A stretch of DNA of 64,000 bases from Amphiscolops sp. MND2022 (taxonomy: Eukaryota), in contig OZ076411.1 in assembly GCA_964187785.1 (NCBI GenBank), positions 67,456,001 to 67,520,000 of the forward strand, given 5' to 3'. Below the pieces are notes generated by a model. It was not told the origin of the DNA. It searched no databases and was given only the letters and a program-made list of their open reading frames with translations. Shown in pieces: positions 7,528 through 38,605 of the stretch. Position 1 is the first letter of the stretch. Each line of letters begins with the position of its first letter. The position numbers and the translations under genes are program-made.

Positions 7528-9276
7528 CCACATGGCCTTGGAAAATATCTAGTATCACTCTTATAAAAAAGCCGGGAAAACAATCCTACCAACAATGCTC
7601 CAGCTATAGACCATTATCTATTTCTAGCCATGTTGGAAAGTTATTTGAGAGAATGATTTCTGCTAGACTGAAGCTTTACTTCGAAACTCACAATATCCTT
7701 GACGAAGAACAAGAAGGTTTCAGGACTCATCGGAGCACTACCCGTTCTTTGTATTGTATGCAACTCGTATTAGAGGAAGCAAAGCGCTCGAAAAAGCCAA
7801 TCGCACTACTGGATATTGATCTGGAAAAGGCCTTTGATAGCATTTGGGTCCAAGGTCTGCTTTATAAACTTGAATTGGTGAATTTGCCCCACAGGCTGCT
7901 ATGTATTATATCATCCTTTCTTAGCAATCGGAAGGGACTCATTGATATCAACGGCCATTACACTGAACTTTTCGATACTAATGTTGTTCTCCCCCCAAGG
8001 TAGTGTACTTTCTCCTCTTCTTTTCATATTTTACCTTAGTGACTTCTTATCCGAAGTTGAGGTAAAGTTCAAATTTGCAGATGACATCTCGGCTATCATC
8101 TCTGCTTTTAACACAGAGACCTTACATTCAGCTCTACAAGCTTTTCGTCATAATTTAGAGTTTTGGTGCAAAAAGTGGAGAATGGTAGTTAATGGGTCTA
8201 AAACTGAGCTACTTCTTTTGAATTGCTTGGCTGACAACACTGAGCCAATCCTTCTCAACGGGGAGCGATGCAAGACGAAGCAAACTACAAAATCTCTGGG
8301 CTTGACAATGGACACTAACCTCACCTATAGAGAGCATACGTCTATTACGGCCTCGAAAGCTTTAACTAGCTGGAGGCTGCTTAAGAGTAAATGCTCTAAC
8401 AGGTGGGGCCTCAGTATTCCAACACAAGCCTATCTGTATAAAATCATAATCAGACCACAGTTTTTTAATGCGGAGCCGATTTGGGCCCAAAGAAACTATG
8501 CAAGCCTACAAATTGTACAAATTCGAATCATTCGCTCCATAATGAAACACAGCATGTCTCCAAAGATAACAGCTATTGAAGCGTTGATGGGATTCCCCTC
8601 TATAAACATTTATTGTTCTTCAATTGAAATAAAATTTTAATCAAAGCAGTGAATAAAGATGATTTAGTTACCGCGACGCATATACCCGTAGTCTCTCCTC
8701 CCTTCTCCCAAGCAAACTGAGAAGATTTGAGAGAACTCATATGTCTCATTCTTACACTCGGGACTCCATCAATGCCTTCATCAGGGATAACTGGAACCGT
8801 AGATGGAACAGTCCGTATAATGACAATTTCCTCAGGAAGTTCATTTCCAACTTACCACAAGAAATGATTCATTTACCTTTACTGGACGGACGGAAACTTT
8901 TTCTTTGCCAATATGATAAGCGATCTTCTCATCGGAAGCTCACGAAGATTAGCTGTAAAACTTATAGAAACTGAGCCGCACACCATCGCCCATGTGTATT
9001 TGTGGAACGTCAGAGCAGAACAGCTACCACTATTTCTTCTATTGTCCAAATTATTGTAATTTCAGACCCTTTTATCTCAATTCTTTTGATCTTTTCTCTC
9101 CTGATGACTGAGTCATTAATAGAAATTTCATCTCCGGTACAAATATTATTTATTGTACTGAAACTGCCGCAGGCGATCCTGCCTATTATGTATGCATCCA
9201 CTATATTGTAACTTTTCTTAAATTGTTTTTTTGCATACCTGCCCGCAAAGACGGGCTTCATTTTAGAAATTATATA
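6790..9276 (+). mobile_element. 5'-truncated LINE (I/Jockey-group-like) ORF2: RT plus C-terminal CCHC knuckle, (TA)n tail; frameshifted
   Basis: ORFs 7407-8003 and 7942-8640 contain IKKPGK, YRPLS, QEGFR, DLEKAFD, PQGSVLSP, FADD and WGL. CICGTSEQNSYHYFFYC lies at ~8994-9045. The element ends cttcattttagaaattatatata. Confidence 0.9.
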
Positions 9277-10005
9277 TATGACGGCAACCTTTGTTCGACA
9301 GAATTTTTCTAAATTTTTACGGTTTTCTAAAAATATCGTTCGAAAGTGACGTGGCCCTCAATCATGATTTCACGTGATACCTGCCCGCAAAAATAATAAA
9401 GAGAAGACACAAGCAGATCCTGCAAGGCGGAAACAAGCGAGCAAAGTGACAGAGAAGCAGAAAAACGTGTACGAAATTGTAAAACTATAGCCCATGCGCT
9501 AGTTCCCACGGTGATCATCACAGGTTGTTCCTAGCCAGAATGTCGGATCAATTGCAATGTCAGGACCCAGGGTTGTGCCGAACCCGAGTACTAGTGCCAT
9601 GCCATTTGACCCCTATTCGCCGAACTGGATTTTAACTCTTCCTTGATGTATTTACCGATTTGTTTGATGAATTCTTGGTCAATTCCAGAGCTACTCGTGT
9701 TAATGTCATTTACGTTAGATTCCCTTCTGGATCGTTCAATTCAGTTCTATGCAACTTAGCCCCTTTTTTACAGGCTGTCTAAGCGGTGGTTACGAACGGA
9801 AAAAACATAATACCCGTTATTCTCAGCAATTACAGACTAGAACAGGTCAGAAAGCATCCTTAGAGACGGTTCCCCCTCCTCGGGACCGGCTTTCCTTAGG
9901 AGGACAAAATGAACTGAAGTTATGGTGATTGGTCCCGAATCTTAACCCATGACGTCAGTTCCTCCATCCTGTGTAGCGAACAAGCGCTAAGCGCTTTTTA
10001 TTACA
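9277..10005 (+). repeat. Gypsy 5' LTR (729 bp)
   Basis: Starts tatgacggc (3' copy tgtgacggc) and ends attaca. Colinear with 27377-28451 once the MITE is removed (728 bp); roughly 90% identical by eye. Confidence 0.88.
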
Positions 10006-10019
10006 TAGAACTCGTTTTT

Positions 10020-10036
10020 TGGCGACCACAGAGGGA
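10020..10036 (+). promoter_or_regulatory. Primer-binding site, tRNA-Arg(TCG)-like
   Basis: TGGCGACCACAGAGGGA is complementary to a tRNA 3' end (TCCCTCTGTGGTCG-CCA) resembling animal tRNA-Arg(TCG) ends as recalled. It lies 14 nt after the LTR. Confidence 0.7.
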
Positions 10037-12896
10037 ACGTCTTTGGGAAGCTTTCCTGCATAGTTGTTAAAAATTTGACCCTCCGGTGTTTAGCGCCAAG
10101 ATCGTTTCGACTCTGAGGGAGAAGACAAAGTTTTGTCCCTCTTTTAACGTTCGCATGTTTTCTTGGCTGCTGGAACGAAGGAAACCCAGAAAAACCCGGA
10201 AAAAATGCGTTTTCAGGTGCGAAAATGGCATTTTCAGGTTGAAAAAACCGTAAATGTATGTGTTGAGATGTAACGTTGTGATAGCCCATCAGTGGGTATA
10301 TGTTTTACAGGTAATGGCTGCCGTAGCACGTGGCTACGGGTGTTTAACCAGTGTTTCTAGCTATTTTCAGTTTTTTGAGCCATGTATGACAGGTACCGCT
10401 GGAGGAAAATCCATACTCCACCAGAGCGAAGGGGAGTCAAAAAAGAGTGTCTGGGTTCGCCGCTTCCCGTTTTTGGTGGAGACGTCCGCGAGGGGTGGAT
10501 TTTGGTGGACAAGGAGTACAGCTCCTGACGAAGCTGATGGTTCAAACCGCAAGTCTCTAACTGGTCTGGATGAGAAATTGCGTGGCGAAGGTACCCCCCC
10601 CCCCCTTGGACCAGAAATGTCGCTCAGATGGGTCATGGTTCGCGAAAATTTTGAGATTGCATCTTTTTTCATAGGGAGTCGTTGGTGCATGTCAGTAACA
10701 CTTTTTTGCAATGTAACGACACCCTACGAAACGCTTTTGAGCCAAGAAAACAGAGACTTTTCGCAAAAACTAACGATTTTTCGTGTTTTTGAGTGTTTTC
10801 CTTGGTTGGAGCACGAGTGCTCCGTAAGTCCAACGTAGCGTTGCCCGAATGGTGACAAAAGTAGCCTCGAACCTTGAGGGAAATGGAAAAAATGACGGGC
10901 AACCATTCCTGTAGCTTTTTTAGGTGGAAAAATTGGATTTATGAGTGAAAAAGTGCAAAATTTGAGAAAAAGGGTGAAAAACACCCTAAAAACGCTACTG
11001 TGCTTAGCTGTAGAAGCCTGGGGCACCGCTGTAAAGTAGTTTCTTGAGCGAGTCACAACCATAGGGTACTGGAATCAGCTTTTAATGACCGTTTTGCTGG
11101 CACAGAAATTGTAAAAAGGCGAAAATCTTGTAATTTTGGCCATTTTGGGCCTTGCAGAGCACATCATTAAAAGCTTAGTTTACAAATCTTTTAATCACCC
11201 CCAGGAGGCCAAGCGCTCTCATTTTCTGTTTTTAAAATTAAAATACCGCATTGTGGTGAAAACCGCGTGCCAAAACGCCCATTGAGTGCTGAGAAAAGTG
11301 GAAAACGCACTGAATTTGACTGAATTTCCACAAAACCGGACTGTGCAAGTGTTAGGGTCGGATCACTGATTCCCCCAACCCTAGCTAAAAAGTGGTTGCA
11401 AATTCGTAATCACCACAAACATAAACACTATTGCCGAAAAATTGATGGGCTCAGTGCTAACCAGAGTCGAGAAAATCTCTTTGACGTTTTGACCTCTGTA
11501 GTTGCTGAAATAGTCAAAACAAGCCAAAACTGTAAGAGCGACAGTGCCTTATACCTAACGGGCACGGCTAATTGAGGTTTTGTGGCAGTGCTGTGACCAG
11601 TGGGAAAACACGTTGACCCTGTTTTGCCTGCCGTAACATTTGTAGTGTTGACCCTCTTAGCTAATTTGTGAAAAAAGTGTCAAAAAAGACCGTTTTTTCT
11701 GCGATCGTGTCCTAACCTGACCAAAGTTCCCGGTATGTCCGAGAGCATCCATTGAGCTGTCATACCAGCATTGTGGGTAGCCACTGGAAACGCGTGCCCA
11801 ATTTCGTGCCAATCGATGCAGTATTTGTCAAGAAATTGACGAAAACGTTGTGCACAAAAACAGGTGCAAAAAGGCAAATTTTTCAAAACTTTTTGGAAGT
11901 GCCCGAACACCTTAGCCGGAAAGTGGGAACAAATTGCATCCCACCATCGTAACTCGTGCCAGTTGGTGCATTGCTAGCAAGAGCACCGAACCGCTAACTC
12001 ATAACCGTGTTGGGATATCGTGCGAAAAGCGTGCATTGTGACTCCTGCTGAGACACAAGTGTACCGCACGTCTGTACCAAGGCGAAACAGTGTACAAGCC
12101 TCGGAGCCCAAATCGATGATCAGTTCCGTGTACCTGGGTGTACGTAGGATCCCCTGGCCGAATTTGACCCGGATCCGATTTTTGAGTGACGAGTACGAGC
12201 CACTTGTGTTTTTTTGTGTTAATCGAAAGAAATCAAAAATTGTCTCGAGTCCCTCGTGATCGTCCCTGAGAGAACCTACCCCCAACCCAAATTTACTTTC
12301 CGAGTTTGTGGGTAGAAACCTAGAGCGTGTGCAATTTTGAGCCAGCTACGACCCGTGGAAGCAATTTCGACCTTCCCGAAGCGTGCCGTGAGCGAGCCGA
12401 AAGTTGCTTAAGTCAACACCGAGACGACTGGAGGTCTGACACACCTTGGGGACCCTGAGGAGCAATTTTAGTGGGATTCGAACACTCCACGGCCTAACTG
12501 AGCGTCTCGTGTGTCAACCGCGTCTGTAAGGAGTGCTACGGACGAACATCAGTGACCTAACAGAGCGATTACTAAGGATTTCGTGTCCACATTACCTTAC
12601 GTTGTATCACGAACCAACGGTTCACGGCATCATGTTCTGGACCGGCGAGTCAACAATAGCCAGGCTACTTATGCGCCGCACGGCGGAACCCAGCAATTCA
12701 AACGCATCCAATGCCACTGGCCTGAACGAGAGACAAGAGACAAGTTCGACTCAACGGGAATGTTCAGGCACCACTATTCGGATGAGCCTAGGAGCATGGC
12801 CATCGGCGGAATCGTTGTTAACTGTCTCCTCCTTTTCAGAAGCAATCAGAGGACAGTGTAACCGGTGATCAACAACGACGAGAAGAGCAAAATGCT

Positions 12897-15270
12897 ATGG
12901 CTCTCAATCGTAATGGTTCACCCGTATTGGAAGAATTTTTTCGTACCGGACAATGGATTCAGGACAACCGGGGCGAGCTAGTATCGCCTCAAACGGCGGG
13001 ATTCTGGCCCAATTCCAACCACACGGCGGTAGATGGGACTCCTGTACGTGCTGGGTGCTCACGAGCGCCCCAGAATGACGGCAGTCTCGTTAGCAAAGAC
13101 ACTGAGGCCATCTTAGAGAACATGACTTACATTACGCCAAATATCGTTTGGAGGCCTGTCGAGCAAAAGCCTCGAACAAGCAGAAGATTCACCCTCCTGC
13201 ATTGTGTGCGCAGGACGAACTGACTCGCGAGAACGCGTCATCCCTTCGTGACAATACGATATCAACAACCTCCTCACGACGGTCCTCAGCATTAAGGGTA
13301 GTCGAGGAAGCCGCTGCAGCAAGGACTGCAATTAGCAGCAAGCCTTAGCGCGTCTGGCAGATACCCGTGCCGAATGCAATGAGCAGCACAAAGTGATGAC
13401 TGCAGAACTGGAAGCTATGCAAGACTCAGTGAAATGCAGCCTAAGAGCAGCTACCCAACAAACCACTGTGCAAGCTGCAAAGGTGGATGCCATGGGATAT
13501 CGCCTGGAAGAAATGAAAGACTTACTTCTCCAACGCGAATTACGCATGGAGGTGCAAATGGCCGAACTCAGTAATCAGCTGCACTCTCTCGGCGCTGCAC
13601 CCCGAGCAGTACCTTCAACGACTGAGCAGACCCGAATGGCTGAACCCATCGCGTCCACGAGCAAAATGGTGCCTATGCGCACCCCCAACCCACCAGTAAC
13701 TCTGAAGACGAGCCTCAAGACGGAACCCAAGGTGCTCAAGCCACCACCAGCGGGCAAGAAGACCACCAATGTGCATGTGTGCGCACCTAATTCGCTCAGC
13801 ACAGTGCGCACCATCGATGACGTCACTGGCCCGTACCCAGGATCAAGGGGTAGACCCCATGACAACCACATTATCGACCGTCGACCTGGCAGACACTAAA
13901 GCCACTGCTGGTTCGAAGACTAGCAGGGCTGAGGATGAAGCCTACACCACTGCTAGGGCAAGGACAACTGGGACCAGTTCAATGTTCCTAACCGCGAGTG
14001 AGGGAATACCCGCGGGCAATCCCTGCGCCAGCAGCACCCGCAAAAAAGACGACGTGAATGGTGAGTTGTCTATGCAAGCCCCCAGGGGCAGTCAAGATAA
14101 CTATCCGGACCCTAGTCAGGGAGAGGAAGTAATCTCCCCCGAGCAGCTGCGATTTACTGCCGCTATTTCCAAAGCCATGTCCAAGGAGTTGGCCCCCCTG
14201 CTGGCAGGACGCGATCCAACTCAGGCCAGGCCTAGTGTCTATAGAGGATCCAAAGAAGGTTCCATCGATGGATGGATCCTCGTAATGCTTGCCGCTACTT
14301 GCAACGCACACAGGCCAAAGGAACCCCCGACGACAAAGCATGGAGCATCATTGGCCATCTGGAAGGCGAAGCTCGCAATTACATAATCAACAAGACCGAG
14401 TCCAAAAAGACACCCATTAAAAGTAATCGAACTACTAGTTAGGAATTTGGAACCGGAGGCAACCGCATGCAAGTGCGCCAAGCCTTTGCCACTCGACAAC
14501 ACTCTGACAGGGAAGACTGGATGCAGTACCTGGATGCACTGGAAGGTACTGCCAAGCCAAGGTTTCCCTGACGAGCCCGTTACTACCAAGCGTTACGAAA
14601 TCTTGCAGCGCTTTGTCGAAGGCGTGCGTGACCGTGCCTCGCGGAGAGAACTCTCTATCATCTATGCATCCGAAACTACTGTCACTGAGCCTCCCACTGT
14701 AGAATCGTTGCGGTTCACGACCCGACAACTACAACGCACCAGGTCCAAGTCTGCGCAACCGTACGACCCAGGTACACTATGAGGTCAAGGCCTCATTCCT
14801 TTGCGCCACCAATCCGAAATAAGATGATGCTACCCCAGCGAGTACTGCCTCGCCCACCAGCCAATAACGCCCCAATAAATCCAACGGCAGCAGAACCTGC
14901 TGTGCGCCTGCCTCTGGGTGCCTGCTTCAATTGTGGCCAGACTGGGCACTTCGCCCGAGACTGTCCCAATCGCGACCAAGCTCGCAAACACACAGCTGCC
15001 CCAAAACTTGAAGGAGTGAAAACCACTGCCGAGGATATAACCGACATTCTAGAAATTTATCCTGGAATCCGCCAATGCGCCCATTGTGGAATATTTGACC
15101 ATGCGGGCTCTCCTTGCGTCGGAAACCCTGTCAATCCAAGCGAAGAACTTGACTACGATCGCTGGGCAGAAGTGGAAGCTGCCGGAGTCGCTGCCCACAC
15201 GGTATCATTAGAGGACGACCGCGTGCTGATGTTACACCCAGCGGAACCTCCAGCTTTCTACACCCCCTGA
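12897..15270 (+). pseudogene. gag: Gypsy gag (coiled coil, capsid, CCHC zinc knuckle), frameshifted
   Basis: Coiled-coil ORF 13393-13899; capsid-like YRGSKEGSIDGW and YEILQRFVEGVRD; CFNCGQTGHFARDC at ~14923-14964. Confidence 0.85.
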
Positions 15271-18200
15271 CCATTACATGTGGAGCCAAGCAAGTCCAGA
15301 CCTGCTTGGAGCCAACTACATTTAGCCCTCAGGGACGAACACTTATATCAATCCATTTGATGCTAGCCGCAGAACAGCTGCGTCGGCCAACACTGACATT
15401 GGCCAAACTCTGGGTCGAACTGTCTATGATATACATTTACAAACGTGTGGAACTACCCCGCCCCAAAGAGTGGTATGCCCCAGGGGACACTCTTACGACC
15501 TATTCTCCCGTGCCAATCTGCGCCACTATGGAAGTCGTGGATGTGAAGTTTGAGGCCTGCGTGGTAGTAGACGTTTTCCCACCCGGAATATGCTTGGGCC
15601 CACAAGAACTCAAGTGTTAGAATATCAATCACCAGGAGCCAACCGGTGAAGCACGGATAGACGAGCGTGCGTCACTCGTCGTTTCCTTGGTTGTGCCCCA
15701 GGCGGCACCCATTCCTCTACGAGGACTTGTCGACACTGGCTTTGGTAAGTCCATCTTGACCTTTTCAGCCTTCAATCGTGTGGCCTCGCAGACTGGCACC
15801 GTGTTGAAGCCGTACCGCATTGATTTGTACGCCGCCAATGGCACGACCATTAAAACCTTTGGGCTGGAAGAGCAGATCCGCTTCCAATTGGGAGGCAATG
15901 AATTGGAAACTAATTTCGTCGTGGTAGACGAGGCCCTGGGAGTGGAAGACTTCCTCTTGGGTCGTAACTCCCTCCGAGCATACCAAGTGCTCGTGGACCC
16001 AACTTCGATGAAGATTGTGGTCCGAGCGCCAGTGAAGCCTGTTTGGCATCATGCACATACACAGGTAGGTGATGCTTCTTTAGCTACTCCTGTCGCTTTA
16101 GACAGCGACTTGATTCTCCAACCTTTTGAACAAGCAGTCGTCAAGGCTAAGCTCACCACCAATGAACTTAAACCGTGGATATTACAAAATGTAGCATTGA
16201 ATGCAGCAATCGCCGATGCATCGCTGCACAACGTAGTGTTTTTAGAAGACAGCATTGCCACTGTCAGTGAAACAGGCCACGTTTTTGTCAGCGTGATGAA
16301 CCCGACGAGTAACCCTCAGCGGATGCAGAAAGGAACCCGGCTGGGCAGTTTAGTCCCGGTGTCGTTGGTCTATCAGGCCATTCCGCAAAGGACCCAAAAT
16401 CAGCAAGCCCAGGTTCAACAAACTGAGGCCACCCATGACCAATTTGCGTTTGTGAATAAAATCTATGAAGAAATGAATTATACTACTGATTTGCAATTAC
16501 CTTCTTCATCTGAATTTGAGTTTTTGTCTTCAACAGATCCAACGAAAGCAGGCCTTTCAGAGCGTGAAATACGCAAGCGTACGGACTCTGGACTCCTGGC
16601 TCCCGTACAGGGAGCAGAGTCACAGCTTAAGACGGTCCGAGACCTATGGGGTTCCAAGGCTAGCATTTCGCTTGAAAACATCTTAACCGAGTTTGATGAC
16701 TTGTTCATGAAGCACAAGGCTGACATTGGTCGATGCACCATAGCCAAACATCCAGTCGAGGTGGAGCCAAGAGCAGTGCCCCAACGCGAAGGCGCAAGAC
16801 GCATGTCCCCTGAAAAGGCAGAACGTGCCAACCAGGAAGTACGCAATCTGCTCGCACTGGGTATGATTCAGCCTTCCTTGTCACCATGGGCAAGCCGGAT
16901 CGTCATGGTAAAGAAAAAGAACGGCGAGTTACGCTTTTGTTCTGTCTTCCGCCCACTGAATGAAGTTACCGTTAAAGATGCGTATCCACTGCCTCGCATC
17001 GATGAAAGCCTCGCTAGGCTGGGCAAGGCCAAGATCTACACTAGCATTGACTTGGCTTAGATTTTCTGACAAATTCCTGTCCGGAAGGCAGATCGTCAAA
17101 AAACCGCCTTTGCCTGCAAACTAGGACTGTTCGAATGGCGACGTATGCCTTTTGGCATGTGCAACGCCTCTGCCACCTTCCAAAGAGCGATAGCACGAGC
17201 GCTACGCAAGATCGTGAATCGGGAAGGCAGCATGGTAATGGCCTACATTGACGACATTGTCATTGCCACCGAAACCGTGGAAGACCACATGGTACGTCTC
17301 CGCGAAGTCTTTGAATGCTTGCGCGAAGCGGGTTTCAAAATGCGAGTTGCCAAGTGCGACTTCAAGAAATCCGAGATCAAGTACCTAGGTCACGTCGTAT
17401 CTGCGGAGGGCGTGAGGCCTGATCCCAAAGCTGTCGCAAAGTTACGCGACTGGGAAATTCCCCGCAACAAAACGGAAGTGCAGAGCTTCTTAGGCTTCGC
17501 CAATTACTATCGCGAATTTATTCCTTGGCACGCCAAGCTGGTAGCCCCTTTGCATGCCATCACTGGCACAAGGGCCACCTTCGCTTGGGGATCAGAACAG
17601 CAATTAGCCTTCAACGAGGTAAAGAAAGCACTCATTGACGCAACTGCCCTCGCGCAACCAGACTCCGAAGGCGAATTCGGGTTGGACATTGATGCCAGCG
17701 CCGTGGCTATCTCGTGGATACTTCATCAGTGGCAAGGCCCACCTGGAGAAAGACGTTTACGCCCAATTGTCTACGGAAGTAAAAAAAAACTCACAGCCAC
17801 GCGAGCCAAGTATGGAGCGCCGCAGCTAGAAATGTACGCGGCGTACCACTTCATCGTAAAGAACCACAGCTACCTATGCCCGCGAAAGTTCACGCTGAGA
17901 GTGGACACTCAGGCGCTATCATGGTTGAAAACGTACTCAACTGATCAAGCCCTCATTGGTAGATGGATCATGGCACTAGAAAAGTACCACTTCCTGTGTC
18001 GAACATCGACTTCGAACACAACATCGCAATGCCGATGGCCTATCCAAACGAACCAACGACTATCGATGGAGAAAACAACAGCTCGAAAAACTGCCTTCAG
18101 TCGCAGAACGATGGAGTTTTCTCTCCCAAGATGAATTCGAGCGTCTTCCCACCGCGCCATGGTTTGACTTGCAGGGCCGGGTAATCCCCAACCATCCTGA

Positions 18201-21200
18201 GCTACCACAGCACTCGAAAAACTTGCAACCAAACCCTCCCAACTCGGTTCAGCGCATAATTCGTCGCACGCAACGCATTCACCGGCGAAATAAACAGCAG
18301 GAGGCCCTGCAGGCACCTCTGCCTCCACAGCCACCTCCCATTCTACACGCTCACGAAGACTTCTACCACGACTACCCAAAAGACTGGATAGATGTTACCG
18401 AAGAAGCACGAGATAACTACTTACTGCCCACACACGTGACCAATGTTGCTTTACGCACCACCTATGAATTGACCAATACTGATGGAGCAACGCTGCAAAG
18501 TGCCCCCGCTCATGTTAAGCAGGTAGCAATGGCCATTCGCAGCGTGAGCACAGAGCTACACGAACATGCCCACACCGTCCACGGCATCAAGGACCTGGTG
18601 CTAGCGCAAAACAGAGATGTCCACGTCCTTGCACTCAAAAAGTTGGTCAACGGTGAATGCACTGACCAAGACATATTCCCTGAAGATGTACGTGCGTTTG
18701 CTCGTAACTACTTCAAACAAAAGAAGGAGATACTATTCCTGAACTCAAAACGTGTGCTTTGCGTGAAGTATCCACCACAACAGCGTCCACTGCATGAGCG
18801 ACCGTGCATGATAGTAATGCCTCAATTATATCAGCAGGAGATCCTTTTTCGTGCGCACGATGTCAAGGGTCGTCAAAGCATTACTAAAGTTGTGGCACGA
18901 ATTCAAGAACGCCGTACCTGGCTTGGTATTTGCCGCACAGTGGGCGAAAACGTCAGCCAATGCCTCAAATGCCAACAGGTTCGAGACAAGCCTGGCGATG
19001 TTCGGTTCCACCTCAAGAACATTCAGAGCGGGTACTCCATTGAGTTAGTGCAGTATGATCACATGAAGCTGTGCCCATCTGATGAGGGCCACACCGGAAT
19101 CCTAGCGATCATAGACCACTTCTCAAAATTTGATGAAGCTGTACCATGTAGTTATGAAGAATACGACGCAATCACCACCTCTCGCTTGCTGTTGCAGAAA
19201 TGGTTTGCACGTCACGGCACACCTACACGTATGCAGTCGGACATTGCTCCGAACCTAACTGCAGAGGTCTCCAATGAATTCATGAAGGCCTCTCAGGTTA
19301 CTAAAGTGACCTCCACTGCTGGTCGAACGCCCAGATCGTACCTTGCTTACACTGCTGCGTGTGTTTTGTTCACGTCGGATGCGTGACTGGGATCAGCATC
19401 TCGATGAAGTGCTCGGTGCTTACAATTCCACACGCCACGCTACAACGGGGTTCTCACCCTACATGTTGACTGGGGCACCGAAAAAGCGATACCCCTCACG
19501 TACTTGTACCCTGAGTTCGCCACTTAAGCTTTTCCCACGCACGATGCGTATGTAGACCACGTGCTGGCGCGTCAACAGGAAATTCACGACCTGGTGCGCA
19601 GGAACACTCACCAAGCTCAACAGCGTCAAAAACTTAAACATGACCGTGCGATTCAGCCAAAGCCTATCAGAAGGGCGACTTGGTCTGGGTTTTTTGTCGA
19701 TATGTTCCCCAAAAGGGATCACCTAAACTGATGCGCGCTTGGCGCGGCCCACACCATGTTGTACACACGTTACAGGATGGACGTGTTTACATCCTTGACA
19801 CAGGGCAAAAGGTCCACTTTGAACGCCTAAAGCCTCACAATAGTGGCCCGCTAGAATTTGCCGCCACCCCTCTTGATACCGGTGACATCGCCGTCGTCAT
19901 GGACCCAGAGCCTGAACGCTCTGTAGAACCCATAGACGATGATTGTTCAAAACCTTCATATGAGTCTGAACAAATGCTTTCAGAGGCCTCGAATGCTTCA
20001 CTAAGTTCCCGCAAGCGCCACTGGATGGATACCAGGTTGCGCACCAAGCTGCGTGCGGGCGAAACCCGGCCACATTACCAGCAATTCAATTATTCCAGGT
20101 CCGAAACAGACAATGAATCGTCGGGGGCGATGCTTCCCATTCCCATCCTTTCACCACAAAAGGTGGAAACCCACCTACCTCTGTTTCCAATAGACAACCC
20201 TATGGCACCTGATTCCTTATCAGATGTCTCAATATTGAGTTGTCTCCCACAATTGTTCTCTGATCATGAGCCTATGCGCTCACCTTCACCACACGTTTCG
20301 CAGTCAGACAATACTCCGGAGCTATCCCTCACCGGTACCCCTGCTCCGTTGCTGACTCAACCCTCTCTCACTGACTACCTCAGCAATTATCCCCTTTAGC
20401 CAAATTAAGCCAAAGTCTCTCCTGAAGCCAGTTCTTGTCCATCATTACCCTCAATGAACATGGCCCCGGCAGTATTGCCAACACTCCACCGCTCCTTCTT
20501 TCAAAAGGGGGACGGGGAGACCGCGAAAAAAGACACGGGTGCCTCAACAGCGGAAAACTCAGGGCAAAACAACGTCCAAGGCGCAGGTACCCAAACCGAA
20601 CGTCCAGACGGGATCTCAGAACAGATACCAACTGAGGCGAAAACGGCAGCCCAGATATAAATGCGGCACGTGCGGCCTACACGAATGCGTGTGCGTGCTA
20701 GCAGTGAATGAGAACCGGGACGTTCCCATTGAAGCCCCCGAGGGACGATATCACGCCAAGTTAATCCGTCAATTTGTCGTCCCAGCGGAGAAGACCTTTA
20801 CTGGAAAAGGAACGAACTGAGAAATATCCATCCGAATTGATCTTGCAACAAATTGCAGTACCAAGTGTTGCAAAGGCACCATGCCCCCGGTTCAAGGAAC
20901 GGACCAGTAATGGCAAAGGCTTTGAGTTCACGTTAGCCACCGTGATACCCCCAGTACCTCCCAAAATTGTGTTTGGACCGTTCAACTTTGAGCGAGAGCC
21001 TGTCCAAATGGCTAGGTGTATCACTACTGACTTGTTGCTTGACCGATTTGGAGTGGAAGTAGAATCGGGTGGTGTCTACAGTCCCGCCCCGTACTGGTGG
21101 CTGTTGGTGACTGCTTCAAGCGTCGATGCACTAGTGAACCCAAAACATCTACTGTTATGCTTGGAAAGCCTGAGGACTTCCACAACGGAAAACCTGATCC

Positions 21201-22021
21201 TATGCTTCCACCTAATAGACTGGTATCGAGGCAAGGTGAAATTCCGTTGGGGGTTGAAGGTTATCATCACATGCTTCATCAACTATCCGCGAATTCGTCT
21301 ATTGGACGAATGGACCCACACGTTTGAAGAACCCCTGCAAGTCATGGCAGCGGTGAGCACGCTAGACACATGGGTTCGAGCGAATGTAGATAACCAAGCA
21401 CTACCACGTTCCGTATGGCAGGACCTATCCGCAATACAAGGTCGCATCCCACGTGTGTGCAAACCTTCCGACAATGACCCTGGTCGAGAAATATTTTATC
21501 CAGGTAGTTTGCGTCCCAACATGGTGGAATACATTTCCTAAAACACCACTGACTTCTTGCAAGCCGAAAGGCATATAGCCCTGCCATGTCCGGCAGACTT
21601 GGAAACAAGTTCCGCGGCGCTGCGCTACGTGTTACGGGAATGTGGCAAGGAACACGTATTCTCACTACGTCCGCAAGTGGGGGAAATACTCACCCTAACC
21701 CCCACGATAACAAACAAGCCTTCTCAGACAATACACCTGCTGATTACACGCGCGAATCAGTGTGCACAACTGATAGCAGATGACTATCTGCTATGCCTGA
21801 GAAAATTGCTAGCATGGCTGGAAGACAGAGGAGTCTCCCAGGTCCACTTTCCCATACTGGACCCAGAAAGGCCGGTATACTTTTTGGCCAACCTATATCG
21901 AGTGATAATGGACTTGTTTGTGGACACGAACATCCACGTAGTTCTACATAATTGCGTGTATGTGTCCATACTAGGCATCGAAGTAGGTGTTAAACTACCT
22001 TGTTGCCATCTCCCTGGCTGA
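15270..22021 (+). pseudogene. pol: Gypsy pol: protease, dUTPase-like remnant, RT, RNase H, integrase with GPY/F motif, long C-terminal extension; multiple stops and frameshifts
   Basis: LVDTG...FLLGRN (PR); SVMNPTSNPQRMQKGTRLG; SPWAS, KDAYPLPRID, MPFG, YIDD (RT); DIDAS, YGAPQLEM (RH); HD...CLKC, QYDH, MQSD, VER (INT); WRGPH (GPY/F). Confidence 0.92.
20960..21960 (+). other. Two tandem TARG1/OARD1 (Poa1p-like) macrodomain-like units at the end of the Gypsy pol region
   Basis: Unit 2 (HIALPCPADLETSSAAL...GEILTL...TIHLLITR...CLRKLLAWLEDRGVSQVHFPIL...IMDLFVDTNIHVVLH) parallels TARG1 as recalled. Unit 1 (WLLVTASS...LLCLESLR...FHLIDWYRGKVKFRWGLKVIITCF...IRL) is similar. ORFs 20774 and 21557 share a frame and are separated by one TAA. 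Confidence 0.7.
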
Positions 22022-22561
22022 AATCTGCTGTGAACCACGGTCACTCAGACGGCTTCCTTGTGCCTAACACACTTTATTTATTGTTAAACACTTTACTTAA
22101 CCCTAACGAAGGACGCTTTGAGCGTTCTCTTAATTAATCTATCATAACTTGTAATAATGTTTTTCATTAAGGAGTTCTCTTATGGAACCGGTTTTAATAG
22201 CGCATCACTCAACCATCACCACGGGTTTAATGAGTATTCATTTTGAGAACCATGATAAGATGGCTTATCATCATACGGCCCCTGCAGCGATGCCTGCCTC
22301 AGCCCTACCTAATCAGAACGCTGCTCGAGCGCAGCGTTCCAACTAAGTGCAGTATATCAAAGGAAAGGCTATGCAATGGCATTTCGTCAGCAGCCGTAGC
22401 TGGGGTCGCAGCCCTCCTGGCTCAGTTAGAAACTCTACCTATTTTGGCCGTGTCGATAGTGGCTGACGTGGCAGGGTACAAACGTACCATGACCATGTCG
22501 CAGCGGGGTATGGGATGGATATGACCTGACTCATCCCTTTCTGGACGATCGGTCTACTGTA

Positions 22562-25500
22562 GTGAGAGGCCCCAGCCTACAAACAGCTATGGAGCAAGAG
22601 GCCACTTTGCGAATCCCTATTGCCAATGTGCCAATGCCACAGCCCTTGCCACCAGCACACCTGGTGATCCAACCTCAACAACAACCACTCGCACAGCAAA
22701 CGACACAGTCGCTGTATCTACCAGACGCACAGCCCGTGGCACATCCTCCAACCCAGATGGCACCTTATGCTAGTGCTCCACCGCCCATTCCCCGCACATG
22801 GTCCTTAGCACAACACCTCTACTGGAGCCCGAGGGCTCCAGCCCAATGTCCAGCGCCAGAGTGCAATATGTGCAATCCATCTGCGCCACCCTCGGCTCGT
22901 CACATTGTTGTCGCACCTGATATGTCGCACAGGACCCCTAGCGAGCAAGTTGTGATACAAGCTCTCCAAGCGGTATCGAATTACCCAGAATTCAGAGACA
23001 TTGTGGAGACAGTATCCAGGCAGATGCCAGGCTTGCAGAACCTTCTAGGAGCCACAGGACAGCCTGAGGGCTGACTGGTCACAAGGGGAAATCAAGGTCC
23101 AAGCACCTGTCCCTCTACTCCTGGTACCAGCACAACAAGACAGCGGGCTCCTTCACCTATTTCATGGTTGTCACTTGTTTCTGATGAGGAACTTGGCCGC
23201 AAAAAAGCCTCGCCGCATGAATTAACTCGATCGACCAACAACAACGACAGCCCCACGAGCCGTCCACTTCCGGTCAAAACGAACAATATGTTGCGCTCGG
23301 GTGGTAATTCAAGAGCCACCAAAAGTAGACTATCGTGGAACCCCAGAACCTCAAATGGCCATGAGTGAGGTAATGGAGCGGTATGCCCAAGCCCCGCCTC
23401 AAAGCAGGATAGCGCCGATGGCTCGGCACCCTCAGGCTCCTCCTCTACCACGAAATCTGGAAAGTCTACAGGACCACGGTATTTCCCACAGTCGGACACT
23501 GTGTCGGAAACCGTGGTAACAAGAGATGCCAATGGCATCTGGCAGGTCGCCCCTCGGTTGAACGATCAGCAGTTCCGAGACCACCAAAAAGTGCCTCCAT
23601 CCAGCGCCAGTCAAACTCAACTGCGGAAACTTTCAACCATTGCACATCTTTCACGAACTCTGCGCGCCTCAGATACGGACATCTTCGAGCCAGCATGGGA
23701 GCAAAGAGTAGTTCGACAGTTGACTACAGCCCATGACAACTATCTACGGCCGATGCAAAATAACCTGAATGCGCAATGCAATGCCAGATACTCGCTGCAG
23801 CCAGGTGAGACTTGGGAAACCCATAGTCAATACTCCAGGTGCCTGGAGGCCTTGAAGCCAATTTCAAAGGAACCCATCTAACGCGTGCGTTACTGCGTGA
23901 TGGTTGGTTCAACGGTCCCATGCGACCTTCCATTAGACAACATTATCCCTGATGTGTTAGTCGTGACGATGCCTATATCACGGCTACCCGAGATGGCAGA
24001 AGTAGCCATCGCGATGTTCTCACCTGAGTTAGAAGGTCCTCAGAAAGAGCCACCTCCCCGGCTAATCATCTTTGCCAATCTGATTGACCATATGGCCTGC
24101 GAAGGCCTACTAGAGGACTTGCCGCGTATACTGCGCGGAATGTCCACCCACGAAGCAGCAAGTAACGAAGTTGCTGGAGTATTACACCAAATAGCAACTG
24201 CAATGGAGCGCACAGGTAAGTTGCTCTGCGCTCGTCTGAGAGTGCCAGCATTATTCGTTTCTCCTCCTGGGAAGCTGTACTGGGGAGGAATGTTCCAACG
24301 GTTCGTATACAGGCTGATCGAGATCTGTAGTGCCGCCGCATTGATTTCTACTTATGCGCGCCCAATTTGCGCGTTGGAAAGACGGACTTGCGCCCTGCTG
24401 CACTATAAGCGCATGCATACCTGGCAACAATTTCACGTCTGTTGCAGCCTGTAGAACGTGGAGGCAATGCCCAACTGACCTGGGATGATGCGACCTACTA
24501 CGACCATGGAATGCGTCTAGGCACGCTGACGTTTGATGAGGCAGGAAATCGAATTCTCCCAGAAGCCAGAAGAGAGGGGCGTGAAAACATGCGCCGATAC
24601 AATTGGCTGGTGCCCGATGCCCACCCCAACACAGTCAAAGCAGATCTAGCAGCGGTCTGGGACCGGATTTGCAGATGGCCACTCAACAGTGAAGTGGAGC
24701 GAACAATCCCTCAGATTCAGTTCGCTGACAACACAGATATCATCAAGATGTTGCTGGGCTTGCGGCTCATCGTGGCTCACGAAGCCGTGACTCTAGACCA
24801 GCTAGTATGAGCACGCGAAGTCACGTACGGTGACTGGTATCATGACCGCATGACCACCGTCACATTGGAAATGGCAGCCAGAACGCTGTCGGTGTCTTTT
24901 CCAGAGTTGAAGACAAGTTTTGGCTTAGGATGGCACCTGGAATTCATGGCGGATGAATTCTGTCTAACCGACGAACAGCTGCAGAAACTCACCGATGCCT
25001 TGAAAGGAACTACGGTAAACGAGGTATTAGCCCTTGCGTTAGCCTTGGGACCCACAAAGTTTGTGGCTGGCCCCCTGGCCATGATCGTAGACCTAGTCAC
25101 CGCTGGTTGGGTCCTGGAGTTCTATATATACCTGGTCCGGGCCCAAGGAAAATTGACCTTCATGCTTGCATGTGGAGAAGTGCTCTTTTTGCAGAACGGG
25201 CACAGCTACACTGAGCAGCTATTCCGGATGAGAGCGTCAGTACAACACTGGCTCTACTCTACACTGATCTATGCATCGGGACTGTTCGTAGTAGTAGACC
25301 AAGCTCAACCCCTACGTGACTCGGACGCGCAGCTGCCTCGTGAAAATCCCGGCTTCCCTATGCCGCAGCAGATATCCAACCTAACGTTGGCAGAAGAAGA
25401 TCTGGTACCAGTAGTTGCCCCCGTCTTGATTCCTATCTTCGGACCCCTGAGCCTACTGCGTTATCCCACCAAGCCCGTGTCCATGGCGGCGCAAGTCGCC

Positions 25501-26591
25501 ACCGTACCCATATTTACTTACCTTCAAGAAGGTCATCCTAAGAATTATGAACAAGCAATCAGAGAGACACTGAGCATCGAGGTATCTCAAGCGTACACCA
25601 CCATCAAAACAGAGCAACAAGCGGAAGAAAACATGATGGGTGTTGTCCGCGCCCGTTCTCGAAAAGCTACTGTCTTGCCACGGGAATACGGCCCGGTTAA
25701 CTGGTATAACGCTCCGGTTGATCTCAACTGGCATCCATTCAGGTTCCCCTGGTCCGCGGACTTTGTCAAGAAGATAATCAACGCGAGTTTGCGGCTATGC
25801 CCGAATGTCTGTCCGGACTACAAATTCAAAATTTTTCAGGTACCCAACCGTTATTGGAAAGAGCCAGTGGGATACCCCCGCGCTCGTCCCATCAGGCGTG
25901 GCAAAGAGCACCTAGACCACCAGGTACGGCACTTGGATGTTGCCAACATCCCCAATGGATATGCGTGGCGGCACAAATACGCGACCGCAGCCTGTCACGG
26001 CGAATGGCCCCCATCCAATACGAACCTGCCTGGCGCCCTCAAGGATGTATGACCATGTCTGGGGACATGCCCCTGGCGCTGCTGGACACGGTAAACCAAG
26101 TCCTAGGCACAGAAATGCGTGCCGAACGGGATGAAGGGTGCCTCAACCTCGGGGTAAGTAAATTCGAAGTGTGGAAAAAGGCCTGTACGCTCTGGAGGCA
26201 AGCCGGATGGGTCTCCAAACGCGTTGCCCTTGCAGCCAGTCATCGAGCTGAGGAAGAGCGTGCAGCACGATACGCTCTCCAAGTGTCTCAAACTGCTGCT
26301 GCCCCCACCATGGCAATGTCACTGGAACAAACGCCCACAGTAGACGCCACACAAGCAGATGAAGAAGTTACAGAAGACGATACAGCTATGCCTGTGACCC
26401 CTAGTCCCTCTGGTGAGCATGCTGCAGAGCTCACGCCTAACGTGGAGTTGGCTGACCCCATCGGTGAACTCACCATCGACACCGATGCTGAGACTGTAGT
26501 GCCCTCACCCGCCAGACAAGTGTCCGTGAGCGATGCCTCATCTCCGCGAGAGAACTCTCCTCGAAGCAGGAACAAATCAGCAATTCAATGA
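22562..26591 (+). pseudogene. Gypsy extra 3' ORF (~1300 aa when rejoined): Pro/Gln-rich N-terminus, SGNH-fold-like domain, hydrophobic helical region, acidic tail
   Basis: Chain of same-strand overlapping or abutting ORFs 22562-23074, 23301-23881, 23885-24454, 24442-24810, 24850-26052, 25797-26591, lying between the pol stop and the PPT inside the LTR pair. Confidence 0.7.
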
Positions 26592-27366
26592 TCTCACATT
26601 CCAACTTGCCAAAACGTCAGTGAGCCCGAGGGCTCACAAATTGAATCAATGAAGCTAGGCCTTCTCAAAACTTCCATGGCCTTATTACGGTGCTGCCTTG
26701 AAACGGTGCAATTTTAGTTAATCGTTTGTAGTTAGATTATTTGATTTGATTCTACGCCTTGGGTGTAAGTTCATTGAGTGCATCTGCCTCTCGTGCCAAT
26801 ACAAATTAACAAAGCTCTTCAAAAAAAGGAACAAGCAAACACTGTTTTTGCTCATCACCTCTAGCGGTATCCAAGAAAGAAATCTTGGTGCGAAAGCACA
26901 GCGAAGTCATAAAAGATCTTTTAAACTAGATTGTCACTCTTTAGTTGAGTCTTGTGCGCTCTATCAACTGTCTATCTTCTGTGTGGAGCTCATACGCTCC
27001 TGAAAAAAAATCATTTTTAAGCAAGAAAACTGTATGAAACGAATCTTTGCCAAATTGGAGAAAAAGACATTTTAGATGGCACTTGCCGCAAAAGGCAAGC
27101 CTTGCTTTAGTCATCACAAGTGTTAAAAATGGCTTAAGCTGCCTGAAAAATCCTAGTTCTCGAGCCGGTGCTACGAACGTCTTCATTTTTTTGTAAAAGT
27201 ATTAGGTTTTGTAGTAAAATTGCAAAAGGATCCAAAAGGCGACGTCTTCAAGATGGCAGTCCTATGCAACGGCATTCTGGTTTCAAGATGTATACACAGC
27301 ATGGGCGGTATCCTGATTCCAGACGAGGATCCCCGATGATTGCCAGGGACGACAAGCCAGGAGCCC

Positions 27367-27376
27367 AGGAAGTGGA
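27367..27376 (+). promoter_or_regulatory. Polypurine tract of the Gypsy element
   Basis: AGGAAGTGGA immediately precedes the TGTGAC start of the 3' LTR. Confidence 0.6.
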
Positions 27377-28451
27377 TGTGACGGCATCCTGTGATCGACA
27401 GAGTCTTTCGAAATTTTGACGATTTTCTGAAAAATTCGTTCAAAAGTGACGTGGCCCTCAAACATGATTTCACGTGGTACCTGCCTGCAAAAATCATAGA
27501 GAGAAGAACAAGCAGACCGCGCGAGGCGGAAAAAAGCGAGCGAACCGACAGAGAAGCAGGAAAACGTGTACGAAACCGTAAAACTATAGCCCATGCGCTA
27601 TTTCCCACGGTGCTCATCACAGGTTGTGCCTAGCCAGAATGTCGGAGTATTTGCAATGTCCGGACCCAGGGTTGTGCCAAACCCGAGTACCAGTGCCATG
27701 CCACCTAAACCCGATACGCCGAACTGGATTTTAACTCTTCCTTGATGTATTTACCGATTTGTTTGATGAATTCTTGTTCAATTCAAGAGCTACTCGTGTT
27801 AATGTCATTTACGTTAGATTCCCTTCTGGATCGTTCAATTCAGTTTTATGCAATTTAGCCCCTTTTTTACAGGCTGTCTAAGCGGTGGTTATGAAAGAAA
27901 AAAGCATAATGCCCGTTATTCTCAGCAATTACACACTGGAACAGGTTAGAAAGCGGGTGGGCGGAAGTAGGTCGAAGGAACGGGATCGAAAATCAGAGTT
28001 AGACCTCAGGTCGACATACCAAATTTTTGAATGGGATCGAAACAACTCGGATCGAAATTTTAATAAGGTAGTCAGATATGTTCACATACCCCTAGTGCCC
28101 TGAATGTAGGAGCGAAACGACGTGCCATATGGCCATGCCTCAATGTTGCTACTTGGCGAAGGGAGCGAAGCGACCGAGCCATACAACAAATACGATAAAA
28201 TTCGACCGCATTCCATTCGATCCCCGCAGTTCGATCAAAAGGTTCGACCTCTGTCCTTTCGACCAGAAATTTCGACCTATTTACAGCCACCCTCAGAAAG
28301 CATCCTTAGGAACGGTTCCCCCTCCACGGGATCGGCTTTCCTTAGGAGGACAAAATGGACTGGAGTTATGGTGATTGGTCCCGAATCTTAACCCATGACG
28401 TCAGTTCCTCCATCCTGTGTAGCGAACAAACGCTAAGCGCTTTTCATTTTA
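27377..28451 (+). repeat. Gypsy 3' LTR (contains MITE insertion)
   Basis: Begins TGTGACGGC, colinear with 9277-10005, followed by ATATA. Confidence 0.88.
27955..28292. mobile_element. 338-bp MITE with 9-bp TSD inserted in the 3' LTR
   Basis: Imperfect TIRs gggtgggcggaagtaggtcgaa / ttcgacctatttacagccaccc. TSD ttagaaagc (27946-27954) / tcagaaagc (28293-28301). The 5' LTR holds the empty site (aggtcagaaagcatcc). Confidence 0.9.
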
Positions 28452-28979
28452 ATATATAAATATTCTCTCCTCTCCGGGAGACAACAGAGGGTAGTAATCA
28501 ATGGCACATTCTCAACCTGGCAGAATGTTACAAGCGGGATACCTCAAGGATCAGTATTAGGTCCAGTGTTGTTCACGATCTACATAAATTCTATGCCGGA
28601 AGCTGTGGAGTCAGAACTTTACCTGTTTGCCGATGACGCGAAGCTCTACAGGGAAATACACTCAGACGCAGATCAGAAAATACTCCAAGATGACCTCCGA
28701 AGGCTGGGAAGCTGGTCGAGTAGCAGTTTACTTCAATTCAATGAGAAAAAATGCGTGAAAATGACCCTCACAACAAAGAAAGACTCCACTGAGAGACATT
28801 ACTTTATGAACACATCAAAGATGTTGGAAAATGTTAGATGTGAAAAACACTTGGGTGTACTAACTGATCACAAACTAAATTTTGACTTGCATATTGCTAA
28901 AAAAATAAAAAGCGAATTCAATGCTTGCTATTATCAGATGATACCGCATAGACTGCAAGATTTTGACATCATGTCTACA

Positions 28980-31500
28980 TTCTTATAATACGAAATTTGC
29001 CTCAATGAGTTATCAATGTGGTTTTGGTGAAGACTACATCTTATACATTCTCGGCGATTTCAATTTTCCTGAAATCGATTGGATTACTCTAACATCATCA
29101 AATACTAATGAGCAAAAGTTTATTGAAACCTCTGACCTGTTAGCAGTTTCGCAGTTAATCGATGTCCCGACTCATAAGTTGGGAAACATTCTTGACCTGA
29201 TTCTAACAAATGACGACACTGGCTTTTTCAATGTTCACCAACAGTTGTTTTGTGATCATTTTCCAATATTATTCTATACGTCTTGCTGCCTGCCTAAACC
29301 AGTTTGTATTGAGTCATTCTCCAAATCTTCTTTTGACCAATTCCTTTTCAACAGTAATCTTGAAACTTTATTCAAGTTCATAACCCTTGATAACATGTCT
29401 AGTCCCTGTTATCCTTACGAATGGTATGAACTTTTAACCCACTCTATTGGAAGCTCTCTGCAGCTCAAGCGTTCCAAAAGACTTCATTTTCCAGCTTTCT
29501 ACTCATCACATACAATCCATATTCTCAATCTTGTTAGAACTAATCAAACAAAATTGAACAAAGGTTGGTCGCTCCACAATTCAATCAAGCATATTGAGTT
29601 GACACGTGCCCTCCCTGAATCTATTGAACTTGACAAACACATTTACATTGAGCAATTCAGCTTAAAGTCGCCAACAGACTGTTTCAAACTTCTGCGTTCA
29701 CTATGTTTTAGTCAATCATATCCTGCTGTTATGTACTTTGAAGATCAAGTTTTACATACTGAAAGTGAGAAAGCAACCTGTTTTAATAACTACTTCGGAT
29801 CAGTATTTGGTCCCAAAACCATCAACCCACCTACTCTTTTCATGTCTTCAGATCACAAACTTTGTCTTGATGATGTTTCTATTCGGGCGGAAACTGTTAC
29901 TTTCATGCTTAGTCAATGCAATGATTCGTCATCCCTTGGTCCATATCTTATTCCCTCCTTCATTCTATATCGATGTTCTCAGATCCTTACTTCCATAGTT
30001 ACTGAACTCTTCAACTGGGTTTTACATAATAGAACTTGGCCTGCTGTGTGGAAGTTGTCTTTTGTTACTCCTCTTCACAAAGATGGTCCGCGAACGCAGA
30101 TAGAAAACTATCGACCAATAAGTATTTTGCCTAAATTGTCTGATATTTTGGAACGTATACTTTTCAATTTTTTATATCCGAAAGTCCGAAATTCGATTAC
30201 TAAAAACCAGCACGGCTTCATGACAAAACGAAGTACTGTAACGCAGATGATATTATATCTTGATAAAGTCTACCGTAATATTGATTCCAACGTACCGTCA
30301 TTAGCTGCATATTTCGACGTCAGAAAAGCTTTCGACTCAGTGCCTCATCACTTACTTCTGCAAAAACTTGTGAAATTCGGGTTCTGTCCAGATTTTATTC
30401 GCTTGTTCTCTTCTTACCTGGATGAACGCTCCAAGTGTGTAAAACTTAATAATACCTTCTCCAGTAAAATAACCGTTTCTTCTGGTGTACCGCAAGGCAG
30501 TGTACTGGGTCCATTACTGTTTATCCTGTTTGTAAACGATATGCCAAACTTAATAGTTTATGGTACTCCTTTCTTGTTTGCTGATGATATGAAGGTGTTG
30601 TTCGATGTTGACAACTTGTATCTTTGGAGTATTGCCAACGGTCTGATCTTTCACCCTTCAAAGTGCAAACTTTTACCTTTTGGTTCCTCGTCTTTCGATG
30701 AGTCATTCATTCTTGGCGACAATGAGCTTCCGGTGGTTGACAATATAAAAGATTTGGGCTTCCTGATTACTCACAATCTAAGCTGGAACAACCACATTGA
30801 CCATAAATTAGCCACTGCTCGAAAAATATTTGGGTTTCTTCGAAGAAATGTTCCATTCAATTGTTCTATTGTCAGAAAGAAACTGCTTTATCAAAGTCTT
30901 ATTTTATCTGTTCTTCTCTACGGTTCCCCTGTGTGGTTTCCCTCCTCCACGTATATTGCAAGACTAGAAAAATTCCAATATAAAGTTTTGAAATGGATGT
31001 TTTCATCAGAGGACTATGTTTCAGGTCTGCTCCAGCTACAGTTTCTTCCAATCTGCTACCAACTCATCAAAGCTGACGTGATTCTACTGTGGAAAATTTA
31101 CAATAGTGATGTTGATTGTGAATACTGTCCATCTAATGTTGCCTCTTGTACGCGTGCATCTTCGGCCAATCAATTTATTATCCCTGATACAAAAAAACTT
31201 GGCTCAAACGCTAACTTCTTCGTACGAGCCACACGTTCTGTAAACTTTCTCCTAAGTCAAAATGTTATATCTTTACCCATGTCTCTATCATCTTTAAAAT
31301 TTTCTCTTGACTGTTATTTCAAGATGCTAACAAAGAATTTTAACATCGATAATTCTTGTTGCTTCTACCTCAAATGTATGTGCACTTGTTGTAGGTCCTA
31401 ATTCACCTGATTTATGTTTTGTTCGTTATAGTTATTTTTTTCTTTGGTAAATAATTTCCGTAATTGGAATTGAGTCTTTTACTACTACTACTACTACTAT
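28980..31500 (+). mobile_element. 5'-truncated L2/CR1-group LINE with open ORF2 (endonuclease C-half plus RT; ORF track 28963-31401)
   Basis: ILGDFN, LDLILT, DHFP (APE); YRPIS, QHGF, DVRKAFD, PQGSVLGP, FADD (RT); no internal stops; (act)n tract at ~31480-31499. 5' boundary approximate. Confidence 0.92.
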
Positions 31501-31909: not shown

Positions 31910-32092
31910 NNNNNNNNNNNNNNNNNNNNNNNNNNNNNNNNNNNNNNNNNNNNNNNNNNNNNNNNNNNNNNNNNNNNNNNNNNNNNNNNNNNNNNNNNNN
32001 NNNNNNNNNNNNNNNNNNNNNNNNNNNNNNNNNNNNNNNNNNNNNNNNNNNNNNNNNNNNNNNNNNNNNNNNNNNNNNNNNNNNNNNNNNNN
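31910..32092. other. Assembly gap (183 N)
   Basis: Run of n characters. Confidence 1.
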
Positions 32093-38571: not shown

Positions 38572-38574
38572 TTT

Positions 38575-38595: not shown

Positions 38596-38605
38596 AAAGC
38601 CAGAA

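Follow-up and report, generated by a model that had tools for sequence, protein, structure and literature searches.

A giant Gypsy element and its sister copies

The stretch of DNA analysed here, henceforth the window, comprises 64,000 nucleotides of contig OZ076411.1 from Amphiscolops sp. MND2022 (positions 67,456,001 to 67,520,000; C3:67456001-67520000 in the 1.07-Gb assembly in which the family searches were made). On its forward strand it carries a Ty3/Gypsy retrotransposon of 19,175 bp (positions 9277–28451), in which two long terminal repeats (LTRs) enclose a leader, gag-pol and a further open reading frame (ORF), ORF2. A preliminary description of the window had placed the element in an oversized family, with the extra length attributed to accessory coding and leader sequence. 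The sister copies bear this out: the family of giant Gypsy elements is genuine, and the window holds one of its old and broken copies.

The LTRs and the primer-binding site (PBS) that had been described were confirmed. The 5′ LTR (9277–10005) is 729 bp long, whereas the 3′ LTR (27377–28451) consists of 728 bp plus a 347-bp insertion, which divides the LTR match into two pieces in a self-comparison of the window. As the preliminary description had recognised, the inserted sequence is a later miniature inverted-repeat transposable element (MITE; 27955–28292, 338 bp, no strand assigned); it ends in short terminal inverted repeats and is flanked by a duplication of 9 bp (27946–27954 and 28293–28301). 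The LTRs differ at 65 of 728 aligned sites (38 transitions and 27 transversions; Kimura two-parameter distance 0.096). The outer dinucleotides, TG...CA in the sister copies, read TA...TA in the window copy, the TG at the start of the 5′ LTR and the CA at the end of the 3′ LTR both being mutated; the 5′ LTR still ends in CA. A purine-rich tract adjoins the 3′ LTR (27360–27376), albeit as an imperfect polypurine tract. The copy is broken by 11 frame changes and by ∼18 stops within the aligned stretches, a count in which overlapping stretches may have been included twice. The copy is old, as had been deduced from ∼10% LTR divergence and numerous stops. Its insertion site is the (TA)n terminus of an older repeat, a paralogue of which is located at 35533–35977.

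The 17-nt PBS (10020–10036) is the complement of the tRNA-Arg(TCG) 3′ end and is separated from the LTR by 14 nt, compared to 15–16 nt in the sisters. The predicted primer tRNA is itself highly amplified in the genome: the tRNA 3′-end pattern matching the PBS occurs 259 times genome-wide, while a control pattern does not occur at all, and at three loci scanned with ARAGORN the genes with this 3′ end are mostly tRNA-Arg(TCG). One tandem array of tRNA-Arg genes, mostly TCG, with a period of ∼174 bp, is located at G000:C9:57.54-57.58 Mb (L088-L090).

Searches for relatives yielded 1,155 candidate matches to the window LTR and 3,434 to a piece of ORF2, of which 40 and 101, respectively, were scored. 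In 11 of the 12 copies fetched via the ORF2 match the LTR pairs span 18.0–19.1 kb; the twelfth contains an internal duplication and showed no LTR pair in the sequence examined. As these copies had been chosen through ORF2, a second set was selected by the LTR match alone, resulting in 16 pairs among the 40 matches. Fourteen of these measure 17.9–18.2 kb from start to start. Copies of a divergent subfamily, the ORF2 of which is ∼43% identical, measure 19.2–19.3 kb in eight of nine cases; in the ninth, one end is masked. The family is one of 18–19.3-kb Ty3/Gypsy elements with several subfamilies and, when intact, two ORFs.

The two remaining LTR-selected pairs are only 11–12 kb apart and weigh against this conclusion. 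They are what might be seen if the 22–27-kb region of the window had inserted independently into a family that is itself short, a possibility that had been raised together with the preliminary description. However, the region is found at the same place and in the same orientation in three subfamilies, with ORF2 identity as low as 43%, and is covered near-completely and collinearly by all six closer copies fetched. It showed no termini of its own in the self-comparison of the window, most LTR-selected pairs are of full length, and ORF2 is under purifying selection (see below). The collinear sisters refute the nested insertion, and its probability is negligible.

The younger intact copies anticipated by the preliminary description do exist. 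Their LTRs are 98.9–100% identical; LTR length across the family is 714–737 bp and the internal region is ∼17 kb. A single Gag-Pol frame is unbroken in two of six young copies and ORF2 in all six. One young copy consists of two LTRs of 714 bp each, a leader of 2,709 bp, gag-pol of 9,411 bp, a spacer of 295 bp, ORF2 of 4,281 bp and a 3′ untranslated region of 767 bp. The ∼4-kb frame that had been counted as a third ORF is accordingly the second: the window copy appears to have three ORFs because it is broken, whereas intact sisters join gag and pol in one frame. In one young copy (L059, in the G000:C4:73990638 region) the sequence past the 5′ LTR stops at the primer site, a sign of a further insertion there.

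Three-base target site duplications

The most unusual trait of the giant family is the length of its target site duplication (TSD). It is 3 bp in 28 of 31 LTR pairs, 25 of them called automatically and three (L027, L069 and L051) by hand. Of the others, one lies in poly-A (3 or 4 bp) and two are untestable (no pair in one case, a masked end in the other); a TSD of 5 or 6 bp is required by none of the 31 pairs. The three subfamilies do not differ in this respect. At 25 of 27 tallied sites the triplet has A or T in the middle (P∼4e-4 at an assumed AT content of 62%).

The window copy taken alone is compatible with either 3 or 5 bp and in this respect weighs against a three-base rule. The ATATA that had been reported as its TSD does border both ends, but it lies within a (TA)n run and its five-base length does not hold. 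Because the family rule is 3 bp, the TSD of the window copy is most likely ATA, with one copy at 9274–9276, within the (TA)n run, and the other at 28452–28454.

All TSDs were read from filled sites only, which would leave room for the footprint to have been generated by host gap repair or by mis-called ends, rather than by the integrase. We consider this highly unlikely. In the same genome and with the same method, an unrelated Gypsy family (11–12 kb; reverse transcriptase (RT) 40% identical) gave 5-bp TSDs in all seven testable copies, the other eight of the 15 extended pairs being cut at sequence edges or unpaired, and the BEL/Pao element of the window (38265–47040) also has a 5-bp TSD. In the giant family, the duplicated triplets vary freely, while the termini are cleanly inverted (TGTA(A/G)C...GTTACA). 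The 3-bp trait therefore goes with the element rather than with the host, and this points to the integrase. Shorter integration staggers of retroviruses have been linked to sharper bending of target DNA (PMC4422553), and by analogy the integrase of the giant family, which would join the DNA ends at a spacing of 3 bp, might have to bend its target more sharply, or bring its active sites closer together, than integrases with 4–6-bp staggers.

According to a 2025 survey by Kojima, Troyka elements are marked by 3-bp TSDs, combined with CG...CG ends, whereas other LTR elements have TSDs of 4–6 bp (PMC12440569). The giant family shares with Troyka/Kuafuorterviruses both the 3-bp TSD and the single Gag-Pol (PMC12440569, PMC11673190), which raises the question of whether it is an oversized member of that group. 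This is exceedingly improbable, taking into account that Troyka has CG...CG ends, a CX2CX8-10HX4C zinc knuckle, no GPF/Y motif, LTRs of 100–400 bp and an internal region of up to 7.7 kb (PMC12440569, PMC11673190), while the giant family has TG...CA ends, a CX2CX4HX4C knuckle, a candidate GPY/F-like motif, LTRs of 714–737 bp and ∼17 kb of internal sequence. A Gypsy family with TG...CA ends and 3-bp TSDs is an exception to the rule of the survey (PMC12440569).

TSD length reports on the geometry of the integrase, and with so many insertions in one genome the target preference of a 3-bp family becomes definable. There is also a practical side. LTR annotation tools that require a TSD of at least 4 bp, as is the default, would overlook this very abundant family or trim it wrongly.

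Gag-Pol and its predicted macro-like tail

The broken gag-pol of the window copy extends from 12632 (start approximate) to 22021 and corresponds to one ORF of ∼3,140 aa in intact sisters. Pfam searches with the intact Gag-Pol identified zf-CCHC, protease, RT, RNase H, H2C2 and rve domains in the order typical of Gypsy elements. In the window these are represented by a Gag zinc knuckle (CX2CX4HX4C; 14920–14970), an aspartic protease (15714–15977), RT and RNase H (16908–17987) and an integrase (18820–19760, end approximate) with an H2C2 finger, a DDE core of the D..D(35)E type and a WRGPH motif. The latter resembles GPY/F by eye and reads WRGPF in one relative. The best matches of the RT-RNase H region in the PDB were to Ty3 (4ol8, 7q5b; E 2e-66), followed by caulimoviral (8e-47) and retroviral (5e-37) proteins.

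In a midpoint-rooted RT-RNase H tree of 33 sequences, built without reference clades, the family falls within a supported group of unnamed long Pols, which variously carry macro, SGNH or helicase tails. The C-terminal cargo of related Gypsy Pols includes a superfamily-1 helicase in P0328 and P0331, an SGNH domain with intact-looking motifs in P0297 and a Pfam Macro domain in P0334. P0296 and P0301 are only 42–49% identical to their best matches in this genome (restricted search) and for this reason probably come from other species.

A low-complexity linker separates the integrase part of the giant-family Pol from its final ∼145 aa (21518–21964 in the window), which are predicted to adopt the fold of TARG1/OARD1 and DarG macrodomains (4j5s, 2lgr, 5m3i). 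The predicted model matched TARG1 in Foldseek with an E value of 9e-10 and a TM score of 0.82, and TARG1-like macrodomains in VIA with a Z score of 16.9 (root mean square deviation (rmsd) 2.7, 139 residues aligned). In addition, the tail aligns with the Pol tails of relatives (profile match probability 99%), two of which are above the Pfam Macro cut-off, and it is under purifying selection, the proportions of nonsynonymous (pN) and synonymous (pS) differences being 0.18 and 0.87, respectively. It differs from TARG1 and DarG in being fused behind an integrase and in having only 13–14% sequence identity. The glycine-rich loops of related macro-bearing Pol tails are replaced, as judged by eye, which suggests that catalysis may have been lost.

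A first, more degenerate macro-like domain is predicted with weak support upstream (20939–21322). Its secondary-structure pattern resembles that of the last domain, and HHalign gave a match between the two (probability 22%, E 1e-3; reversed control 0.06%), so that they probably form a tandem pair. The weakness of this match nevertheless counts against the first domain.

ORF2 and its predicted SGNH-like fold

ORF2, broken in the window (22260–26591), encodes 1,426–1,456 aa in intact sisters. A profile search retrieved 627 representatives at E≤0.001; the 150 listed are 25–92% identical to ORF2. Among the homologues listed by other searches, none bears a name. The protein is under purifying selection, with pN of 0.14–0.39 against a saturated pS of 0.76–0.84.

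Given the position of ORF2 between pol and the 3′ LTR, in a frame of its own, it might be supposed to encode an envelope or fusion protein, in which case the element would be an infectious, errantivirus-like endogenous virus. This is very improbable. Hydropathy analysis and a motif scan detected no signal peptide, clear transmembrane anchor or central furin site: the N-terminus is hydrophilic, the highest 19-residue hydropathy (1.78) falls within a predicted helical domain, and a furin-type site occurs only at the very end of the C-terminus. The predicted fold, an alpha/beta SGNH-like domain plus helices, also speaks against an envelope protein.

A structural model of aa 380–1320, with a mean predicted local distance difference test (pLDDT) score of 63, contains two confident blocks, at approximately aa 540–740 and 800–970. 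For the first of these (23867–24474 in the window) nearly all of the 50 structural matches listed by VIA were SGNH/GDSL proteins (best Z 8.1, rmsd 3.9–4.1, 162–170 residues aligned), with the OSK domain of Oskar among the top ones. OSK is a non-catalytic SGNH fold. A motif alignment, in which 128 of 140 rows were kept after 12 misaligned ones had been dropped and residues were assigned by motif position, revealed a block-I-like D-S-T (Asp in 27/29 rows, Ser in 24/29) and the block-III Asn (34/36). A hydrophobic residue stands in place of the block-I Gly, and the block-V-like motif reads D-L-R-P, so that an Arg takes the inferred position of the catalytic His in 31 of 39 rows and His is found there in one. 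The domain is likely to be a pseudo-esterase, as far as the model and these motifs indicate.

Several observations weigh against this assignment. The SGNH call is of moderate strength, the Z score of 8.1 being near the level reached by unrelated models; ∼40% of the model scores less than 50 in pLDDT, and no fold is assigned to the helical portions. Foldseek searches, including those against viral folds, returned no match at E≤0.001, a result that does not rule out membership of a family, and the ORF2 sequence had no match in Pfam, NCBIfam or the PDB. The replacement of His by Arg rests on motif position and not on measured geometry, while another His (aa 581) is kept in 32 of 36 rows. In other comparisons, the SGNH profile of ORF2 did not match the intact SGNH domain of P0297, an atlas search gave a lead of only 0.75, no RNA holder came up, and no relative of ORF2 was confirmed in metagenome contigs.

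ORF2 could alternatively be an active hydrolase with a non-canonical residue set, comprising the conserved Ser and the other conserved His and acting, for example, in membrane remodelling as proposed for LINE (long interspersed nuclear element) esterases. The strong conservation of D-S-T, Asn, Asp-His and a PPG loop speaks for this, as do two retroelement precedents: the downstream GDSL/SGNH frame (ORF3) of the rotifer LTR element Vesta, which keeps its catalytic residues (PMC5408684), and the esterase of the ZfL2-1 LINE, which is active and binds lipids (PMC3905857). The Arg at the block-V position, the loss of the block-I Gly and the presence of the non-catalytic OSK among the top fold matches argue in the opposite direction, and we regard an active enzyme as rather unlikely.

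A conserved non-coding leader

Between the PBS and gag-pol lies a leader of ∼2.6 kb (10037–12631). It is 71–74% identical across blocks of 750–870 bp between subfamilies in which synonymous sites are saturated, and in a young copy its sense strand contains 19 ATGs, compared to 31.9±4.3 in shuffled sequences. Minus-strand tblastx matches raised the possibility of an antisense gene. This candidate was rejected: codon periodicity is absent (p 0.97; p<0.002 for the ORF2 control), indels break the frame, and no ATG-started ORF exceeds 141 aa in young copies. Being conserved, non-periodic, frame-broken and poor in ATGs, the leader is a constrained non-coding region, with a likely role in packaging or translation. 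A conserved RNA structure is not proposed, the predicted hairpins having an unfavourable covariation term (+8.0); an Rfam scan of the leader gave no match. A ∼190-bp duplication within the leader (L042 and L054) is present in some copies and absent in others.

Relation to known elements and possible functions

The family shares with Ty3/Gypsy elements (Metaviridae) the TG...CA LTRs (in the sisters), the tRNA primer site, the order of the zinc knuckle, protease, RT, RNase H and integrase, and the D..D(35)E integrase core. It departs from them in its size of 18–19.3 kb, the 2.7-kb leader, a PBS 14–16 nt from the LTR, the macro-like Pol tail and the 1.4k-aa ORF2. The 3-bp TSD also contrasts with the 4–6 bp typical of Gypsy elements (PMC12440569), but what defines the superfamily is its RT and the order of its domains rather than the TSD.

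Other giant elements are known. The planarian Burro/GYPSM1 is likewise large, with one very long polyprotein that includes accessory domains; however, it exceeds 30 kb and encodes BIR, BCL2, MATH and ankyrin domains and an in-frame Env (PMC6431247), none of which was detected in the giant family by a Pfam scan of the intact Gag-Pol. The plant Ogre elements are also large and have extra ORFs of unknown function, but owe their length mostly to LTRs of 1.9–6.5 kb (PMC6431247). Concerning ORF2, an SGNH-type accessory protein downstream of pol is shared with Vesta, where ORF3 is ∼1.3 kb and catalytically intact (PMC5408684), in contrast to the likely dead fold within a 4.3-kb ORF of the giant family. 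The SGNH-type protein in a ZfL2-1 ORF also has intact catalytic residues (PMC3905857). Literature searches on 3-bp TSDs or staggers in Gypsy elements, and on macrodomains or SGNH proteins in LTR elements, returned no title or abstract describing the giant family, Repbase and GyDB being outside their scope.

The best explanation, to which we assign a probability of about 0.8, is that the element in the window is a decayed copy of an 18–19-kb Ty3/Gypsy family with 3-bp TSDs, the extra length of which is made up of the non-coding leader, the tail of Pol with its predicted macrodomain and an ORF2 with a predicted, likely non-catalytic SGNH fold. By analogy with established Gypsy biology, the full-length RNA would have tRNA-Arg(TCG) as its primer and the single Gag-Pol would be cut by its own protease; ORF2 may be translated from an RNA that is spliced or starts internally. 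As for function, it is slightly more probable than not that the macro-like tail and ORF2 would act as intracellular binding modules, neither enzymes nor envelope, the former for ADP-ribosylated chromatin or defence proteins and the latter for RNA or lipid. A more far-reaching proposal, which we put forward only tentatively and hold to be less probable than not, is that the family represents an undescribed old giant Gypsy clade in which the 3-bp stagger arose independently of Troyka, the macro domains read ADP-ribosylated chromatin or counter an ADP-ribose-based defence, and ORF2 serves as an Oskar-like RNA or lipid scaffold. If this is true, LTR finders requiring 4–6-bp TSDs would under-annotate the clade. 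The family contributes a ∼19-kb element of animal type, the enzyme folds of which are conserved but likely disarmed, and offers a testable case of the evolution of accessory proteins.

Neighbouring elements

The BEL/Pao element downstream of the giant copy is young, with 307-bp LTRs that are 99% identical. Ahead of its 3′ LTR it contains an antisense open frame of 463 codons (45383–46774), which had no match in Pfam, and it also includes a 177-bp tandem repeat (43869–44330). Between the two LTR elements, a pair of long endonuclease-RT LINE frames face each other (28942–31401 on the plus strand and 32154–34991 on the minus strand), with a stretch of N at 31910–32092 between them. Upstream of the giant copy, a perfect two-copy tandem duplication of 474 bp (6578–7527) is either very recent or an assembly artefact. 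The 11–12-kb Gypsy family used as a TSD control (L111-L127) has LTRs of ∼1.95 kb and a gag-pol frame of only ∼1,420 codons, several kilobases of the element being unexplained.

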